64,000 nucleotides of DNA from Gemmatimonadota bacterium (lineage in GTDB: Bacteria; Gemmatimonadota; Gemmatimonadetes; Palauibacterales; Palauibacteraceae). This document shows positions 21,001 to 27,000 of the stretch, piece after piece (within the stretch, counting starts at the first letter, position 1; every line of letters starts with the position of its first letter). The stretch spans positions 32,001 to 96,000 of the forward strand of contig JBDHAC010000017.1 in NCBI GenBank assembly GCA_039588275.1. Direction: 5' to 3'. Position numbers: made by a program.

Positions 21001-24000
21001 CCGACGCTCCCGGGGATCGAGGACGCCACTTCCCTCGAGATCGAATCCGAGCAGCGGCGCAACCGGTGGGGGATCACGTTCCTGTTCGAGCCGGGCCAGG
21101 GCGCCCGGCGCCCTGAGACGCCCCCTCGCCGCGAGTCCGCGGGCGATGCAGTCGCCGAAGGCGGTCCGGAGACGGCGGGACGGGAGGCAGTCCAGCGCCC
21201 TCAGCGCCGAACCAGTGGTTGGCGGTTCGCGATCACCCTGCAGCGCGCGGCATCGGGGTCGGGGGGACAGACTCCGGCCTCCTCGCTCGTGGCGGTGACC
21301 GTGCGAGCGCCGATCCGGATCTTCTAGACGGTACTCCTTCGCGCGGCGCCCACCTCCCGGTGCAAGGTACGCTCGCCCTCACATCGACCGGCGAGCGGCT
21401 CAGGCGCTCGCTACCCCCAGGAGCTCCTCCGCGTGCGTGCGTGAAGCCTCGCTCTCGGGATCCCCACCCAACATGCGAGCCAGCTCCCGCACCCGGTCGC
21501 CGCCCTCGAGGGCCTGGACCCGAGTCCGCGGGCGCTCCCCCTCCGTGAGCTTGTCGACGGAGAGGTGAGCCGTGGCGCGCGCCGCGATCTGCGCCAGATG
21601 CGTCACGACGAGGACCTGGTGGGAGCCCGCGACCCCTGCCAACCGTTCCGCGACCCGATGGGCGACTTCGCCCCCGATGCCCACATCCACCTCATCGAAG
21701 ATGAGGATCGGCACCTCGTCCACCTCCACCAGCGCCGTCTTCAGCGCGAGCATGAGGCGGCTCATCTCTCCCCCGGACGCGACCCGGGCGAGAGGAGCCG
21801 GCTCGAACCCCGGATTCAGGGAAACCCGGAACTCGACCCGTTCCCTGCCCCCGGGCGTCACCTCATCCTGAGGCTCCAGGCAGACGACGAATCGACCTCC
21901 CGCCAGCCCGAGCTCGGGGAGCGACCGGCCGACCATGTCCTCGAGCCGTCGTGCGGCGCTTGCCCGCGCTTCGCTCAGGCTTCGCGACCTGGCATCCAGT
22001 CGGATCGCGCACGCCGAGCGCTCCGCTTCGAGCCGCTCGATCTCATCGTCGGACCCTTCGATCGAGGCGAGCTCGGCACGCGCTGCGGCGCCCGCCGCGA
22101 TGACCTCCGCCAGAGTGTCGCCGTACTTACGCTTCAGCCGATACAACGCATCGATGCGCTCGCGTACCTGGCTGAGCCGGGTCGGATCGTGCTCGACGCC
22201 CGTTCGGTATTCGCCAACCCGGCGACCGAGCTCCTCGAGGGCCCTGAGCGCCGTCTCGTGCAACTCCTCGAACGCTGCTCCCTCGGAATCGATGCGAGTC
22301 ACCTCGGTGAGACTGCCCGCGAGCTCCCCGAGGCGATCCACCACGGACCCCTCTCCTTCGTAGATCCCCTCGTACAGCTTCCCCGTCAGGGCGAGCAATT
22401 CCTCGGAGTGCGTGAGGCGTCTCGCCTCTCGCTCGAGCTGGTCTTCCTCGTCAGGATCGAGGGCGGCTGTCTCGATTTCCTCCGCCTTGAAACGCAGGTA
22501 GTCGACCCGCTCTCGACCTTCCGACGCCCTCTTTCGCGCTTCGGCGATGCGCTCATCGAGAGCTCGTAGCTCACCGTGCGCCCTAACCACGTCGGCCGCG
22601 AGCTCGGTGACACCTCCGAAGGCGTCGAGGATCTTCCGCTGCTCGGGTCGGTGCAGCAGATGTTGGTGTTCGTGCTGCCCGTGCAGGTCGAGGAGGCGGT
22701 CACCCAACTCCCGCACGAGCGACATCGTGGCGGGCGAGGAGTTGATCCACGCGCGGTGGCGACCCTCCCGCCGGAGCTCACGCTTCAGGACGAGCCAGCC
22801 ATCTTCCGCCTCCAGACCGGCCCTCTCGCAGCGCTCGACGATATCGGAGCGCGCTTCGATCTCGAACCGGCCCTCGATGCGTGCTCGCTCGGCTCCGGCG
22901 CGGATGTAATCGGCGGACGCACGTTCCCCCACGAGGAGCGATAGCGCCTCCACGAGTATCGACTTTCCAGTCCCGGTTTCTCCGCTTAGTACCGTGAGGC
23001 CCGGTCCGAACTCGACGGAGAGCTCGTCGATGACGGCAAAATCGCGGATACGGAGCTCGCGCAGCATCAGGTCGAGGATGTCCGGGCCGGCGTGCTAGAC
23101 GTCGCTGGGGCGCACGTCACCCCACCGCAGCTTGCGACGCAGCACCGAGAAGAAGCTGTACCCCGGGAGCCGAAAGAGTCGGACGGGGTGCTCGGAGCGG
23201 ACGACCTCCACGCGGTCTCGGGCGCTCAGCTCGGTTCCGGGCTGCCCGTCGACGGTCAGGGCCAGGTCGTCGTGGCCCCCGAGGATTTCGACTGTGACCT
23301 TCGTCGTAGCCGGTAGCACCACGGGTCGAACAGCGAGCGTGTGGGGCGAGATGGGAGTGGCGATGAGCCCGTCCATCGTGGGGACCAGGATCGGCCCGCC
23401 TGCCGAGAGACTGTAGGCGGTGGAGCCTGTGGCGGTCGCCACGATGATGCCGTCCGCGCTGTACTGACCGATCGGCTCATCATCGGCCCACAGGCGTAGC
23501 GTGATGAGGCGCGCCGTCCCACTCTTGTGTACCACGGCATCGTTGACCGAATAGAAGGCGCGCATCGGATCCGGCGGACCGTCGTCGTCCTTCTGCCGGA
23601 CAGTCACCTGTAGCGCGAGGCGCTGTTCCTCGTCGCAGTCGCCGGATGCGATCACGCGGAGCGCTTCCTCCAACTCGTCCCGCGCCACCACGGTCAGAAA
23701 CCCGAGCCGACCCAGGTTGCACCCGAGGACCCGGAGGTTGCGAGGTCCGGCGATCCGCGCACCGCGCAGAAAGGTCCCATCGCCCCCGAGTGTCAGGATC
23801 CAATCGAGCTCGTCGAGTGACTCCTCGAGCGAGCCTCGGCCCGGAAGCGAATCAGCTCGGTCTTGCTCCAGGTGGAACTCCATACCGAGCGGCCGGGCCA
23901 CTTCGACGAGCCGCTCGAGGAGCGACTCCATCCCCTGGTAGTGCGGGTTTGTGACGACGCCTACATGCATGCGGCTCAGCTCTTTCGCTCGACGACGAGG

Positions 24001-27000
24001 TGCACCATAGCACGCAGTTGGCCTGCTCCCTCGAGCCCCACCAGCTCGGTGCGGGCCCGGGCTGCCAGCTCTCGCCCCAGGCGCGTCGCCTCCCGAACGC
24101 CCACAATCGATGGCACGGTGGCCTTCCCGAGGGCCGCGTCTCTCCCTCCGGCCTTCCCCATCTCTCGGGACGAGCCGGTGACGTCCAGGATGTCATCTAC
24201 GACCTGGAACGCCAAGCCCAGGTTCCGGCCGAAACGCTCGAGTCGCTGCTCCGTCTCGGTCGGGGCGTTCGCTGCAACCGCCCCCATCACACAGGCGGCA
24301 GCGATCAGCCGGGCGGTCTTTCCCAGGTGAATCTTCTCCAGCTCCTCCGGGGTCACGGCCCGTCCCTCGGCGTCCAGATCCCGGAGCTGGCCTCCGACCA
24401 TCCCGGACCCGCCCGCGGCGACGGTCAAGGCGCGAATCAGGCGGGCTACTCGATCCGGTTCCAGTCGCAGCCGAGCGCCCGCGACCGCGATCGCCCGAAT
24501 GGCGAGCGGCATGAGCGCGGCCCCGGCCAGCGTCGCCGTCTCAACCCCGAATTCCACATGTAGGGTAGGCCGGCCGCGGCGAAGCAGGTCATCATCCATG
24601 CACGGCAGGTCATCGTGGATAAGGGAGTAGGCGTGGACCAACTCGACACTGCACGCCAGCAATTCGACGCCCGACCGCGGCACCCCCGCCGTGCGCGCCT
24701 CACCCCCGGCCGCGCGATAAGACGCTACGAGGAGCAGCGGCCGGATACGCTTGCCCGGCGCGAGTACGGCGTGGCGTAAGGCCGCGGATACGGGCGGTGC
24801 GGCCTCCCGCAGCTCTCCATCGAGGAAGGCGGCCAGCTCGGTGTCGACCGCCTCCCGTACGCTCGCGAGATCCGCGTCGTGGAGCCGGGTCTCAGGACCG
24901 GTCCCCGTCGCCATCGGATTCGTCCTCGGGTTCGGGTGGACTGAACTCGACCTCGCTCAGCTCGCCCGTCGATTGGGTGATCAGCTCTTCGACCTTGCCG
25001 CGCGTTTCCTCCAACAAAAGGTTCGCCGCCCGAACATGCAGGATCCCCTCCTCGAAGAGCGCCATGGCCTCGTCCAGTCCGAGCTCATCCGAGTCGAGTG
25101 CCGCCACGATGCGCTCGAGCTCTGCCAGCGCCTTCTCGAAGTCGTCCATAGGCTCGGGCATCATTCACTCCCGTGTGGCTCGACTCGATCGGAGCGGCAA
25201 TGGACCGTTCCATCGCTCACGCGGAGCCGAAACTCTCCTCCCTCCTCGAACATGCCGGTGGTGCGCAGCACGCGCCCATCGGGTGCGAGCGGTACCGCGT
25301 ATCCACGACGAAGCGTGTGCAACGGGCTGAGCGCATCGAGACGCTCCGCGAGCCGCAGCCACCGCGCGCCGTCACGCTCCAGTCGATACCGCATGTAGGC
25401 GCGAAGTCGTTCCTCGAGCCGCGCGGCGCGCCTGGCACCATCACGTCCGCGGCGGCGTAGCCCCGTCACCATTCCGGCGGAAAAGCGCCGGACTCGGGTC
25501 CGCAGGGCCTCCCGATCTGGCACCGCCATCTCCGCCGCAGCGGAGGGAGTGGGGGCGCGGACATCGGCGACGAGATCGACGATCGTCACATCCACCTCGT
25601 GCCCGACCGCTGCGATGACCGGAACCGGACACGCCGCCACCGCGCGCGCCACGGTCTCTTCGTTGAAACACCAGAGGTCTTCGACCGACCCACCACCCCG
25701 CGTGAGGATGATCAGGTCGAGGCCCGGGTACCTCCCGAGCGTTTCCAGAGCGCTTCGGATCTCGACGCCCGCGCCCTCTCCCTGTACCCGACAGTCTCGC
25801 ACCAGCACGCCGGTCCACGGAGCGCGACGCCGTACGACGGTGAGGATGTCCCGCAGCGCCGCGCCGCCACGCGACGTGACGACCCCGATCCGACGTGGGA
25901 CCATGGGCAGCGGTCGCTTTCTGGCGGGGTCGAGCAGGCCCTCGTCCTGGAGCAGGCGCCGAAGACGCTCGAACGCCAGGCGCCATAAGCCTTCCCCTCT
26001 CGCCTGGAGGTTCCGCACGATGAGCTGGTAGCGGCCTCGCTGTGGGTACAACGAAACCTGCCCGAACGCGCAGATCTCCATTCCCTCCTCGGGATCGGTG
26101 GGAAGGCGCCACGCATCACCCTGGAACAGCACGCATTGAATCTGCGCCCGGTCGTCTCGCAGGCTGAAGTACCGGTGCCCGGACGCCGCGACACGCCAGT
26201 TCGTGACCTCCCCGAGGATCCAAAGCGGTTGGAAGGTACCCTCCAGGACGTCCCGTGCCGCATCGTTGAGCGCGGAGACCGGGAGTGGTCGTTCCGGGGA
26301 GCTTCCGAGCGGCAGTCGCTCGAGGTCATCCGCCACGCGGCCGTCGCCCTGCTCGACGGACTCGAGGGTCGCGTCGGCGCGCTCGGGGGCGCGCCCGTCG
26401 AACAGCGAGAACTGTCGTCTTTGGCTCATCCGGTCGCCACCGGCCCGCCCGCGTGAATCTCGAGCTGGCGGGCGGCGGCCGCGACCGTGTTGCGCAGGAG
26501 CATGGCGATCGTCATCGGACCCACACCTCCCGGGACCGGAGTAATCCACGCGGCGCGCTCGGCCGCTTCCTCGAAGGCGACATCGCCGACGAGGCGGTAA
26601 CCCTTCTCCTTCGAGTCGTCCGGAACGCGGTTGACGCCCACGTCGATCACGACCGCACCTTCGCGCACCATGTCACCCGTCACCATCTCGGGGCGGCCTA
26701 CCGCGACGATGAGGATCTCCCCTTGCCGCGTAACCTCCCCCAGGTCATGCGTACGGCTGTGCGCCACGGTGACGGTGGCGTTGGCCCACGGTTCTTTCTG
26801 CAACAGGATCGCGGCCATCGGCATGCCGACAATGTTGGACCGCCCGACGATGACCGCGTGGCGGCCGGTCGGGTCGACGCCGGTGTGCTTGATGAGCTGT
26901 TGGATCCCCGCAGGTGTCGCCGGCCTGAAGGCGAGGGGATCGCCGCTCGCGACTCGCCCCACGTTCGTTGGATGGAAGCCGTCGACGTCCTTCGAGGGGA

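Follow-up and report, generated by a model that had tools for sequence, protein, structure and literature searches.

In this study, we find that a marine bacterial order, Palauibacterales, has lost Dxs, the enzyme that normally opens the routes to isoprenoids, vitamin B1 and vitamin B6, and has kept every enzyme that uses its product, DXP. In isoprenoid engineering Dxs is the bottleneck, subject to feedback inhibition, and it is also a target for antibacterials. How DXP arises in its absence has been named as an open question (PMC10663253; PMC11730185, excerpt). The first-pass annotation of this DNA had proposed an MEP pathway that runs without Dxs on DXP from an unidentified source, and in this core claim it was right, given that 65/75 high-quality order genomes encode Dxr and lack both Dxs and HMG-CoA reductase. 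The class offers unusually clean comparisons: Dxs was lost on two separate occasions, sister groups carry it, and the members that switched to mevalonate still have ThiG and PdxJ. We infer that DXP is most likely made in the cell, by a carboligation in which a stand-alone E1-alpha protein, here called alpha2, may take part.

Loss of dxs from a conserved gene cluster

The genome under study (G000), a Gemmatimonadota bacterium of the order Palauibacterales, is an 86%-complete bin, and the window is the whole stretch of 64,000 nucleotides analysed. On the minus strand of the window the genes run folD-xseA-xseB-ispA-nadK-recN (Table 1). Sequence and synteny agree with the earlier description of ispA abutting nadK at the slot that holds dxs in relatives: in 5/5 Dxs-bearing relatives, one of which has four extra genes inserted, dxs separates the two genes, and ispA adjoins nadK in 9/9 Dxs-less relatives. 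Neither the window nor these nine relatives hold a dxs remnant between ispA and nadK, the spacer has no match by tblastn with four Dxs proteins, and no replacement gene occupies the slot in 10 genomes. The flanking ispA shares 40-58% identity with its syntenic counterparts in 14 relatives, and an ortholog of nadK was found in 46/49 genomes searched.

Table 1. Features of the dxs slot in the window and of the alpha2/beta candidate encoded elsewhere in G000
Feature	Position	Strand	Evidence or description
folD	26426..27340	-	NCBIfam FolD families, E 1e-108 and better; over NF008058 cut-off; upstream member of conserved cluster
xseA, exonuclease VII large subunit	25161..26429	-	TIGR00237, 401 bits vs cut-off 180
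xseB, exonuclease VII small subunit	24892..25164	-	TIGR01280, 58.6 bits vs cut-off 35
ispA-type polyprenyl (farnesyl) diphosphate synthase, intact	23976..24914	-	NF045485, E 2.7e-80, 269.6 bits, cut-off 275
5-bp spacer, empty dxs slot, no remnant	23971..23975	.	Sequence; ispA ends at 23976, nadK starts at 23970
nadK, NAD kinase, intact	23095..23970	-	NAD kinase families, E 1e-62, under their genus-level cut-offs
recN, downstream cluster member	21400..23067	-	TIGR00634, 515 bits vs cut-off 408
alpha2, stand-alone E1-alpha clade	G000 C8:116166-117317, outside window		383 residues
E1-beta, encoded in trans to alpha2	G000 C6:98988-99962		324 residues

Elsewhere in G000, a PF13292 search for Dxs yields only fragments of 48-112 residues, and a six-frame ORF profile search and tblastn reach only E1-beta and transketolase domains. 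Across the order, Dxs exceeds the TIGR00204 cut-off in 0/145 genomes, 75 of which are at least 90% complete, which upholds the claim that Dxs is absent from this genome and from every order genome searched; five of the 145 match the C-terminal half of Dxs only, with a protein that is either one subunit of a split transketolase or a similar one of the TK type. In the class sample of genomes at least 90% complete, Dxs was found in 0/77 order genomes (G000 included) versus 186/224 others. The statement that closed genomes are among those lacking Dxs needs qualification: G014, G004, G005, G017 and G069 are joined by N spacers, and none was seen in the 33-51 kb checked of each of G138, G193, G160, G250 and G204. 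G138 appears to be a closed genome with adjacent ispA and nadK, Dxr and no mevalonate genes. The second group that lacks Dxs and carries Dxr also exists as described and comprises 34 genomes of family f6, with Dxr in 5/5 and HMG-CoA reductase in 0/5 of those tested. Loss of Dxs in the order is real. The gene was probably deleted from an xseB-ispA-dxs-nadK slot in the ancestor of the order and, in what would be a separate event, in one subclade of f6.

Retention of DXP-consuming enzymes

Retention of dxr, ispD/E/F/G, ThiG and PdxJ, as annotated at first pass, is borne out. Dxr, IspD, IspE, IspF, IspG, PdxA, ThiC and ThiD of G000 all exceed their NCBIfam cut-offs, ThiG and PdxJ are full length, and Dxr, ThiG, PdxJ and IspG keep their motifs intact. 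Dxr, the sole one of the five MEP enzymes surveyed order-wide, occurs in 127/145 genomes; PdxJ was found in 5/5 Dxs-less genomes as well as in G000, and ThiG in 25/25, including 10/10 tested that lack Dxr too. This retention of ThiG argues that DXP is available and that thiazole synthesis is under selection, so the first-pass doubt about the thiamine-producer label probably points the wrong way. Provided that DXP is made in the cell, the proposal that the order supplies thiamine is supported rather than weakened. IspH is, as reported before, missing from the incomplete G000 bin, and it is present in loci of the Dxs-less genomes G014 and G160 (NCBIfam-confirmed) and G193 (tblastn).

By tblastn, G000 has no HMGR, MVK, MPD or IPK, and the claim that a mevalonate reductase is lacking thus holds for this genome. 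It fails for the order, in part of which mevalonate genes have replaced Dxr: HMG-CoA reductase is encoded in 21/145 genomes, including 15 of the 18 without Dxr, and a full mevalonate cluster was read in G069, G074 and G105. An archaeal-type HMGS/thiolase pair is present in G000.

These reductases, together with the fragmentation of many bins and the N-joining of five 'single-contig' genomes, could suggest that dxs was missed by binning, or that mevalonate supplies the isoprenoids and the MEP genes are leftovers. Such an artefact or relic is largely refuted already and is the least credible of the explanations considered here, since 10 genomes have an intact, empty slot, 121/127 Dxr-positive genomes lack HMG-CoA reductase, and dxr was lost where mevalonate genes took over (15/18 Dxr-less genomes), indicating that Dxr is not kept idly.

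A candidate E1-type route to DXP

Dxr, ThiG and PdxJ still draw on DXP in these cells, and the cells themselves are its most likely source. In our model, Dxs-type chemistry would take place on another thiamine-diphosphate enzyme, a heterotetrameric E1, which would decarboxylate pyruvate and transfer the hydroxyethyl unit to glyceraldehyde 3-phosphate rather than to lipoamide. We favour this origin of DXP after loss of dxs tentatively, as something not quite probable, and a little under half of that confidence attaches specifically to alpha2 and its beta partner. Purified PDH yields deoxyxylulose and AceE mutants rescue a dxs deletion, yet wild-type E. coli PDH makes too little DXP in vivo (PMC3424233, excerpt). 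The lead enzyme would be alpha2 paired with a beta subunit encoded elsewhere. Canonical PDH E1 is the second choice, and genomes that lack alpha2 would have to depend on it; a comparison of PDH E1 from 7 Dxs-less and 4 Dxs-bearing genomes revealed no convincing shared substitution.

In a hand-picked panel, alpha2 is present in 37/39 Dxs-less and 13/24 Dxs-bearing genomes, a class-level association that amounts to two loss events among kin that are not independent. It is kept in small Dxs-less genomes (G163, G132, G107, G018) and missing from small Dxs-bearing ones (G172, G304, G283, G155). Beta accompanies alpha2 in 28/28 cases in a 42-genome panel, where all 10 beta-less genomes lack alpha2. 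The alpha gene in cis to beta is deleted in 9/29 readable loci, all nine from alpha2-positive and eight from Dxs-less genomes; its cofactor motifs are lost in 6 f6 genomes, and 4/4 genomes without alpha2 have it intact. In a quick tree alpha2 forms a separate clade (SH-aLRT 100), and it falls under every NCBIfam cut-off, including those of the PDH E1-alpha equivalogs TIGR03181 and TIGR03182 (190/411 and 151/394 bits), the latter of which is passed at 411 by its C2 paralog. Over 112 alignment rows, which include repeats of the same genome, the GDG..N cofactor motif and the RxxGH loop of E1-alpha (PF00676) are conserved (GDG in 110, Asn214 in 112, GHATHD in 111), as is Lys75 (112/112), where PDH has Phe. 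A structure model of alpha2 with beta reached 0.88 versus 0.00 for the best control (contact agreement between runs of 89% or more, partner pLDDT 90 or higher); the pass mark was attained by 116/157 solved and 2/215 mismatched pairs. Because E1 alpha/beta complexes have already been solved, the pass shows likeness only.

Other observations limit the role of alpha2. It is missing in genus g24 and in G005, with 4/42 Dxs-less genomes (G005, G014, G015 and G016) lacking it; in G014, beta is cleanly deleted with no gap and Dxr, ThiG, PdxJ and IspH are still there. In an Acidobacteriota sample, alpha2 occurs in 2/64 Dxs-less genomes, one of them the seed, versus 6/87 Dxs-bearing genomes (p=0.47), so it is no general replacement for Dxs, and its strong conservation in Dxs-bearing genomes implies another job or a parallel route. 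Directly upstream of alpha2 in three Acidobacteriota genomes, all Dxs-bearing, lies pdxJ, an order that may stem from one rearrangement that they share. Across 119 loci, alpha2 has no other MEP, thiamine or B6 gene as its neighbour. Whereas TIGR00204 describes a single chain of ~620 residues, alpha2 and beta are two separate proteins, and the cofactor domain alone aligns. In a distant-family alignment of uncertain register, beta lacks the Dxs GAP-site residues Y392, R420, D427 and R478 and has equivalents of E370 and H431, and a profile alignment places alpha2 Lys75 two residues off Dxs His49.

In its strongest form, which we regard as unlikely, the model would make alpha2 with its trans beta a natural DXP synthase other than Dxs. 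It would be an E1-type carboligase encoded by two genes and loosened from a dehydrogenase operon, would use Lys75 for the phosphorylated acceptor, and would have been present already in the Gemmatimonadetes ancestor and have made dxs dispensable twice in the class. If true, it would mark the first time that a dedicated natural enzyme is seen to take over the rate-limiting MEP step, the MTA shunt aside. The comparisons narrow the question to a few genes that can be put to a complementation test in laboratory E. coli.

Alternative sources of DXP

DXP could instead come from an unrecognised non-E1 enzyme, such as an aldolase or isomerase of an unlinked family, with alpha2/beta being just a 2-oxoacid dehydrogenase E1. 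This is a serious contender, if still on the unlikely side: alpha2 fails the Acidobacteriota comparison and is missing in g24 and G005, beta shares an operon with a SucB-like E2, and 172/181 published Dxs-less species are without explanation (PMC10663253), but inspection by eye of the predicted proteins beside dxr, ispD, ispE, ispF, ispG, thiG and pdxJ in G000 revealed no unusual gene, and the dxs slot is empty in 10 genomes. Conversion of ribulose 5-phosphate to DXP, through a RibB leak and/or a YajO-like reductase, is documented for E. coli mutants (PMC3424233, PMC8227265, excerpts). RibB is present in 30/30 genomes searched, its Asn87 loop is altered in 13/13 order sequences versus 1/11 Dxs-bearing ones, and among the G000 proteins is a YajO-like aldo-keto reductase (38% identity, E 5e-59). 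We nonetheless consider this route decidedly unlikely: the suppressor sites G108 and D113 are unchanged in all 31 Gemmatimonadetes RibB sequences (G108S/D113G 0/31), the Asn87 change is missing in 4/7 Dxs-less f6 sequences, and the 1.3 Mb of G014 read hold no close reductase ortholog (best 33%).

That a transketolase, or a split TktA/TktB pair, takes pyruvate to make DXP seems improbable. TktB is the best Dxs-profile match in the order, and the alpha2-less G015 has it besides a normal transketolase, but the C-half match is confined to 5/145 genomes, and the G000 enzyme keeps all three catalytic histidine motifs; substitutions that allow transketolase to use pyruvate are known. Import of deoxyxylulose or DXP from hosts or neighbours, as proposed for Wolbachia (PMC10253641, excerpt), is a shade less plausible still; the order includes sponge-derived genomes, but it also lives in sediment and soil (PMC10469786, excerpt), Dxs-less Rhodothermus makes carotenoids in pure culture (PMC11730185, excerpt), and an FGGY sugar kinase was found in neither G000 nor G014, with one each in three other genomes. 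Salvage of methylthioadenosine or 5'-deoxyadenosine to DXP (the MTA-isoprenoid shunt), perhaps via a non-RuBisCO isomerase, would be compatible with MtnA-like and class II aldolase-like genes in G000, recognised by motif only, and with MtnA in G014. We think it very improbable, as a motif scan of the predicted proteins of the 86%-complete G000 bin revealed no RuBisCO-like active-site motif; the earlier exclusion of a RuBisCO-like shunt is supported for this genome, the one checked.

Comparison with known systems

The E1-type carboligation that we favour has a chemical precedent in the E. coli dxs suppressors (mutant AceE, RibB G108S/D113G, YajO; PMC3424233, PMC8227265, excerpts), in which a housekeeping enzyme makes DXP and AceE performs the proposed chemistry. 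Those mutations were obtained in the laboratory and affect RibB or a homodimeric E1; here the RibB changes are absent and the E1 is of the alpha/beta type. With the heterotetrameric 2-oxoacid dehydrogenase E1 enzymes (PDH, branched-chain; PDB 1um9, 1w85), alpha2 shares the E1-alpha fold family, thiamine-diphosphate motif and catalytic His loop (best PDB match, E 3.5e-34), but it is encoded alone in its own clade, has Lys-Ala-Trp in place of Phe-Cys-His, and carries an added N-terminal DPPEY motif. The MTA-isoprenoid shunt of Rhodospirillum rubrum is likewise a natural Dxs-independent DXP route, and it needs the RuBisCO-like isomerase whose motif was not found in G000.

Rhodothermus marinus is also a free-living heterotroph that lacks dxs and makes isoprenoids by a route stated to be unknown; it makes carotenoids in yields that rise with pyruvate and is cultured and transformable (PMC11730185, excerpt). 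No alpha2 ortholog from Rhodothermus was found among the best 80 of 567 loci. Rhodothermus is among the 181 Dxs-less MEP species published by Marshall et al. 2023 (PMC10663253), a set that also includes Salinibacter, Rubrobacter, several Acidobacteriota, Anaplasmataceae and others. No Gemmatimonadota appear in that species list, and we found no paper on a Dxs-less MEP pathway in this phylum. Like those bacteria, which have all MEP enzymes but Dxs, mostly no mevalonate route and an unknown DXP source, the order belongs to a known, still unsolved kind. What distinguishes it is a loss that has become fixed throughout an order (145 species) and recurs in a second clade, a deletion site that synteny makes visible, and relatives with Dxs or mevalonate genes that serve as internal controls.

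Results

The window spans C17:32001-96000 of the genome under study, G000. On its minus strand, folD, xseA, xseB, ispA, nadK and recN follow one another, and 5 bases separate the ispA stop from the nadK start. In all five Dxs-bearing relatives, drawn from five families, dxs sits between these two genes (in G169 four additional genes precede it within the slot), whereas nadK directly follows ispA in nine Dxs-less relatives (G138, G004, G005, G014, G017, G160, G193, G204 and G250). The sequence and both sets of relatives thus bear out the first-pass annotation, which had ispA abutting nadK where Dxs-bearing kin carry dxs. 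With four Dxs proteins as tblastn queries, no dxs remnant was detected between ispA and nadK, the sole weak match (E 0.001) lying elsewhere in a G005 locus. An in-place substitute was rejected, as nothing occupies the slot in the loci read, and so was a split or diverged Dxs in the genome under study (G000), where searches returned only E1-beta and transketolase matches. Converging on recN is an unannotated protein of about 550-600 residues; proteins of the same type, with no NCBIfam match, are kept at this place in nearly all Gemmatimonadetes loci read.

Positions of the features discussed
Feature	Genome	Position	Strand	Locus
ispA stop	G000	window 23976	minus	
nadK start	G000	window 23970	minus	
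Unannotated gene converging on recN (called gene 19504-21327)	G000	window 19378-21327	plus	
alpha2, stand-alone E1-alpha	G000	C8:116166-117317		L034:6167-7318
alpha-beta-E2 operon region	G000	C6:97376-101059		L035
Archaeal-type HMG-CoA synthase, thiolase and DUF35-like cluster	G000	C30:21140-23875		L041
Microcompartment-like cluster next to thiD	G000	C50:10212-14697		
HMGR-like gene region	G014, G015			L282:6012-14144; L283

Absence of Dxs throughout the Palauibacterales, as first claimed, holds: none of the 145 genomes from the order exceeded the cut-off of the Dxs family model TIGR00204, and 75 of these reach 90% completeness or more. The order name is that of the first-pass annotation and agrees with close homologs that bear the label Candidatus Palauibacter. 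Five matched over the C-terminal half only, a split transketolase in G002, G014, G015 and G028 and a similar transketolase-type pair in G018. In a class-wide sample of 301 genomes, Dxs was absent from all 77 order members and present in 186 of the 224 others (five of the 186, G158, G161, G166, G235 and G362, are unpublished). Five genera of one family, f6, account for 34 of the 38 misses outside the order; of the other four, three are without nadK too, so that an assembly gap is the probable cause, and the fourth is G284. Dxs-less f6 genomes carried Dxr in 5/5 tested and HMG-CoA reductase (HMGR) in 0/5, in line with the earlier mention of a second Dxs-less, Dxr-positive group. In a quick tree their alpha2 proteins gather in a single branch next to that of a Dxs-bearing f6 genome. 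The f6 absence is a second, separate loss. The claim that the loss extends to closed genomes stands in part: G138, G193, G160, G250 and G204 showed no N spacers in the 33-51 kb read per genome, but G014, G004, G005, G017 and G069, each listed as one contig, contain them. G014 (L298-L357) is made up of bin pieces strung together with 347 N spacers, each roughly 100 bases long, in 1.2 Mb; the contig number given for a genome here is no guide to closure.

The users of DXP have been retained, as the first-pass annotation stated. In the G000 bin (4.1 Mb, 86% complete), Dxr, IspD, IspE, IspF, IspG, PdxA, ThiC and ThiD exceed NCBIfam cut-offs, ThiG and PdxJ are full length, and a motif scan found the catalytic motifs of Dxr, ThiG, PdxJ and IspG complete, although three of the patterns used gave no match. 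For the presumed thiE that precedes thiS-thiG, NCBIfam gave no hit at E 1e-35. IspH was not found in this 86%-complete bin and is present in Dxs-less G014 and G160, in both as a long type of about 405 residues. In f6, ispH sits in the PDH-operon locus of Dxs-less and Dxs-bearing genomes alike (L128, L129, L132 and L133; G193, G160, G300 and G304), and in G160 it lies tail-to-tail with lpd. Across the order Dxr occurs in 127 of 145 genomes; ThiG was found in 25/25 Dxs-less and 8/9 Dxs-bearing genomes and PdxJ in 5/5 tested. The neighbours of dxr, ispD/E/F/G, thiG, thiC and pdxJ in G000 are housekeeping genes only. A cluster resembling a bacterial microcompartment (shell-protein, EutN-like and aldehyde-dehydrogenase-like genes, read by eye) lies next to thiD.

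A mevalonate reductase, said to be missing, was found in 21 of the 145 order genomes. Fifteen of these belong to the 18 that lack Dxr and 6 to the 127 that have it; 65 of 75 high-quality order genomes combine Dxr with neither Dxs nor HMGR. In G069, G074 and G105 (L047, L052 and L053), HMGR is grouped with kinase-, decarboxylase- and HpnN-like genes, the mevalonate set comprising HMGR, MVK, a decarboxylase and an IPK-like kinase, and Idi2-type and hopanoid-type genes adjoin the cluster in G074 and G105 (all names by eye). Since HMGR resides mostly in Dxr-less genomes and in such clusters, some genera have exchanged MEP for mevalonate and lost dxr afterwards, a switch seen in at least five genera. 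ThiG is nevertheless retained in 10/10 Dxr-less genomes tested, and PdxJ in two; therefore DXP seems to be on hand independently of isoprenoid synthesis. This retention speaks for the published 'thiamine-producer' label on which doubt had been cast.

Two further observations concern mevalonate-type genes. G014 and G015 carry an HMGR-like gene under the family cut-off and without mevalonate kinases, neighboured by lipid-kinase-, cytidylyltransferase-, DUF3419- and PLP-decarboxylase-like genes (by eye), which may serve a lipid pathway. G000, which has no HMGR, encodes an HMG-CoA synthase cluster to which G014 fragments L310 and L339 are 81-88% identical; because this far exceeds the usual between-family level of 45-70%, the sequences suggest a recent transfer.

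Among the thiamine-type enzymes of G000 are a transketolase, canonical PDH E1 alpha and beta, a fused alpha-beta E1, SucA and the alpha-beta-E2 operon on contig C6; alpha2 is a single E1-alpha on C8. Acetolactate-synthase-type enzymes number one to four per genome in five genomes. alpha2 forms a distinct clade (support 100 in a quick tree), falls under every NCBIfam cut-off, and retains its cofactor motif and His loop. Lys75 is present in 112/112 alpha2 rows (some genomes repeated), at the site of the Phe of GFCHL in PDH alpha; we took this site to match His49 of Dxs, and a profile alignment put it two residues off. Relatives among the best 80 of 567 confirmed loci come from Acidobacteriota, Eisenbacteria and a planctomycete. 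In three Acidobacteriota, all Dxs-bearing (L162, L221 and L222; G377, G478 and G417), pdxJ lies immediately upstream of alpha2, with a 4-bp overlap in L162, and a fused alpha-beta E1 follows alpha2 in several Acidobacteriota genomes, including two of these three loci. Unpublished G516 is part of this neighbourhood survey and of the motif rows.

In a panel chosen by Dxs status, the outcome not known beforehand, alpha2 occurred in 37 of 39 Dxs-less versus 13 of 24 Dxs-bearing genomes (Fisher's p = 2e-4, with only two loss events behind the association); three more Dxs-less genomes made this 38 of 42. No separate beta gene adjoins alpha2 in 24 readable Gemmatimonadetes loci. The beta of the C6 operon (orthologs at E <1e-115, next matches 7e-95 or weaker) was found in 32 of 42 genomes; the ten lacking it also lack alpha2, which was never seen without it in these 42. 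From 9 of the 29 beta loci that could be read, the alpha gene preceding this beta (cis alpha) has been deleted; all nine genomes carry alpha2 and eight are Dxs-less. Six f6 genomes, including two with Dxs, retain a cis alpha from which the cofactor motifs have gone, and in four genomes without alpha2 the gene is intact. Given this co-occurrence and the deletion or decay of cis alpha, C6 beta very likely works with alpha2 as its partner. No matter which substrate it acts on, two alpha subunits are available to the C6-type E1 as alternatives; that cis alpha is deleted or persists as a motif-less pseudo-enzyme in many alpha2-bearing genomes suggests an asymmetric or regulated E1. A structure model of alpha2 with beta scored 0.88 against 0.00 for the best control, by a mark that 116 of 157 solved pairs and 2 of 215 mismatched pairs pass; runs shared at least 89% of contacts, with partner pLDDT of at least 90. 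Because solved E1 alpha/beta complexes exist, the model is to be read as conveying likeness, not specificity. Folded from one sequence only, alpha2 gave a pLDDT of 39, too low for use.

Discussion

The loss of Dxs from the order and its continued demand for DXP are solid, and that the loss is an artefact or a relic is the least likely reading of all. As the source, we lean tentatively towards an E1-type enzyme, on which DXP would be formed by carboligation of pyruvate and GAP. That this enzyme is specifically the alpha2/beta pair is doubtful. Dxs-less G014, G015, G016 and G005 lack alpha2, and in G014 beta is deleted without a gap while Dxr, IspH, ThiG and PdxJ persist. In g24, the genus of the first three, an HMGR-like gene and a transketolase in split form occur (the latter alongside a normal one in G015), and G005 has an additional E1 pair without E2; these could be stand-ins. 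Mevalonate use as the reason for g24 lacking alpha2 is unsupported: its reductase falls below the TIGR00533 cut-off in a cluster without kinases, and no MVK, MPD, IPK or Idi2 was found in the approximately 1.3 of 3.04 Mb of G014 read. Among 151 Acidobacteriota, Dxs is missing from 64, a share far above the handful of published species, and alpha2 occurs in 2 of these 64, sorted by Dxs absence alone, versus 6 of the 87 others (which include unpublished G404, G426 and G516, the last an alpha2 holder); a general cross-phylum replacement was rejected on this sample. Dxs is also present in 8 of 14 alpha2 holders chosen from the best 80 of 567 loci, and C6 beta lacks the Dxs phosphate-site residues. 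Therefore alpha2 is no universal replacement and has a role in Dxs-bearing cells as well. Comparison of the canonical PDH E1 in 7 versus 4 genomes gave no clear common change, with two weak columns in alpha and none in beta.

Besides carboligation on an E1, an enzyme not yet recognised is a possible, if rather unlikely, supplier. The RibB/YajO route appears improbable: G000 does encode a YajO-like reductase, but RibB is single-copy in 30/30 genomes and carries neither G108S nor D113G, so that the suppressor substitutions were rejected. Formation by transketolase we regard as very unlikely, and we place import below it, against which stands the lack of an FGGY kinase in G000 and G014 (one is present in three of five genomes). 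Salvage from MTA is remoter still, since a motif scan of G000 found no RuBisCO-like motif, as the first-pass annotation had it for such a shunt.

Other organisms pose the same question. The E1-type and RibB/YajO routes have counterparts in the E. coli suppressors described in aceE, ribB and yajO (PMC3424233, PMC8227265). The main text of three papers on Gemmatimonadota nowhere contains 'dxs', although supplements may hold pathway tables showing the gap; the literature searched, outside which most subscription journals lie, gave no report of the loss in this phylum, and the accessible part of PMC13001223 has nothing on a DXP route. Marshall et al. catalogue 181 species in which dxs is the only MEP gene missing, 172 of them unexplained, and the species list as available to us includes no Gemmatimonadota (PMC10663253). 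Wolbachia is assumed to depend on host DXP (PMC10253641), and for Rhodothermus marinus the authors state that the source is not known (PMC11730185). To this known and unsolved puzzle the Palauibacterales add a Dxs-less order that offers good controls from within and reduces the genes worth testing to a short list.
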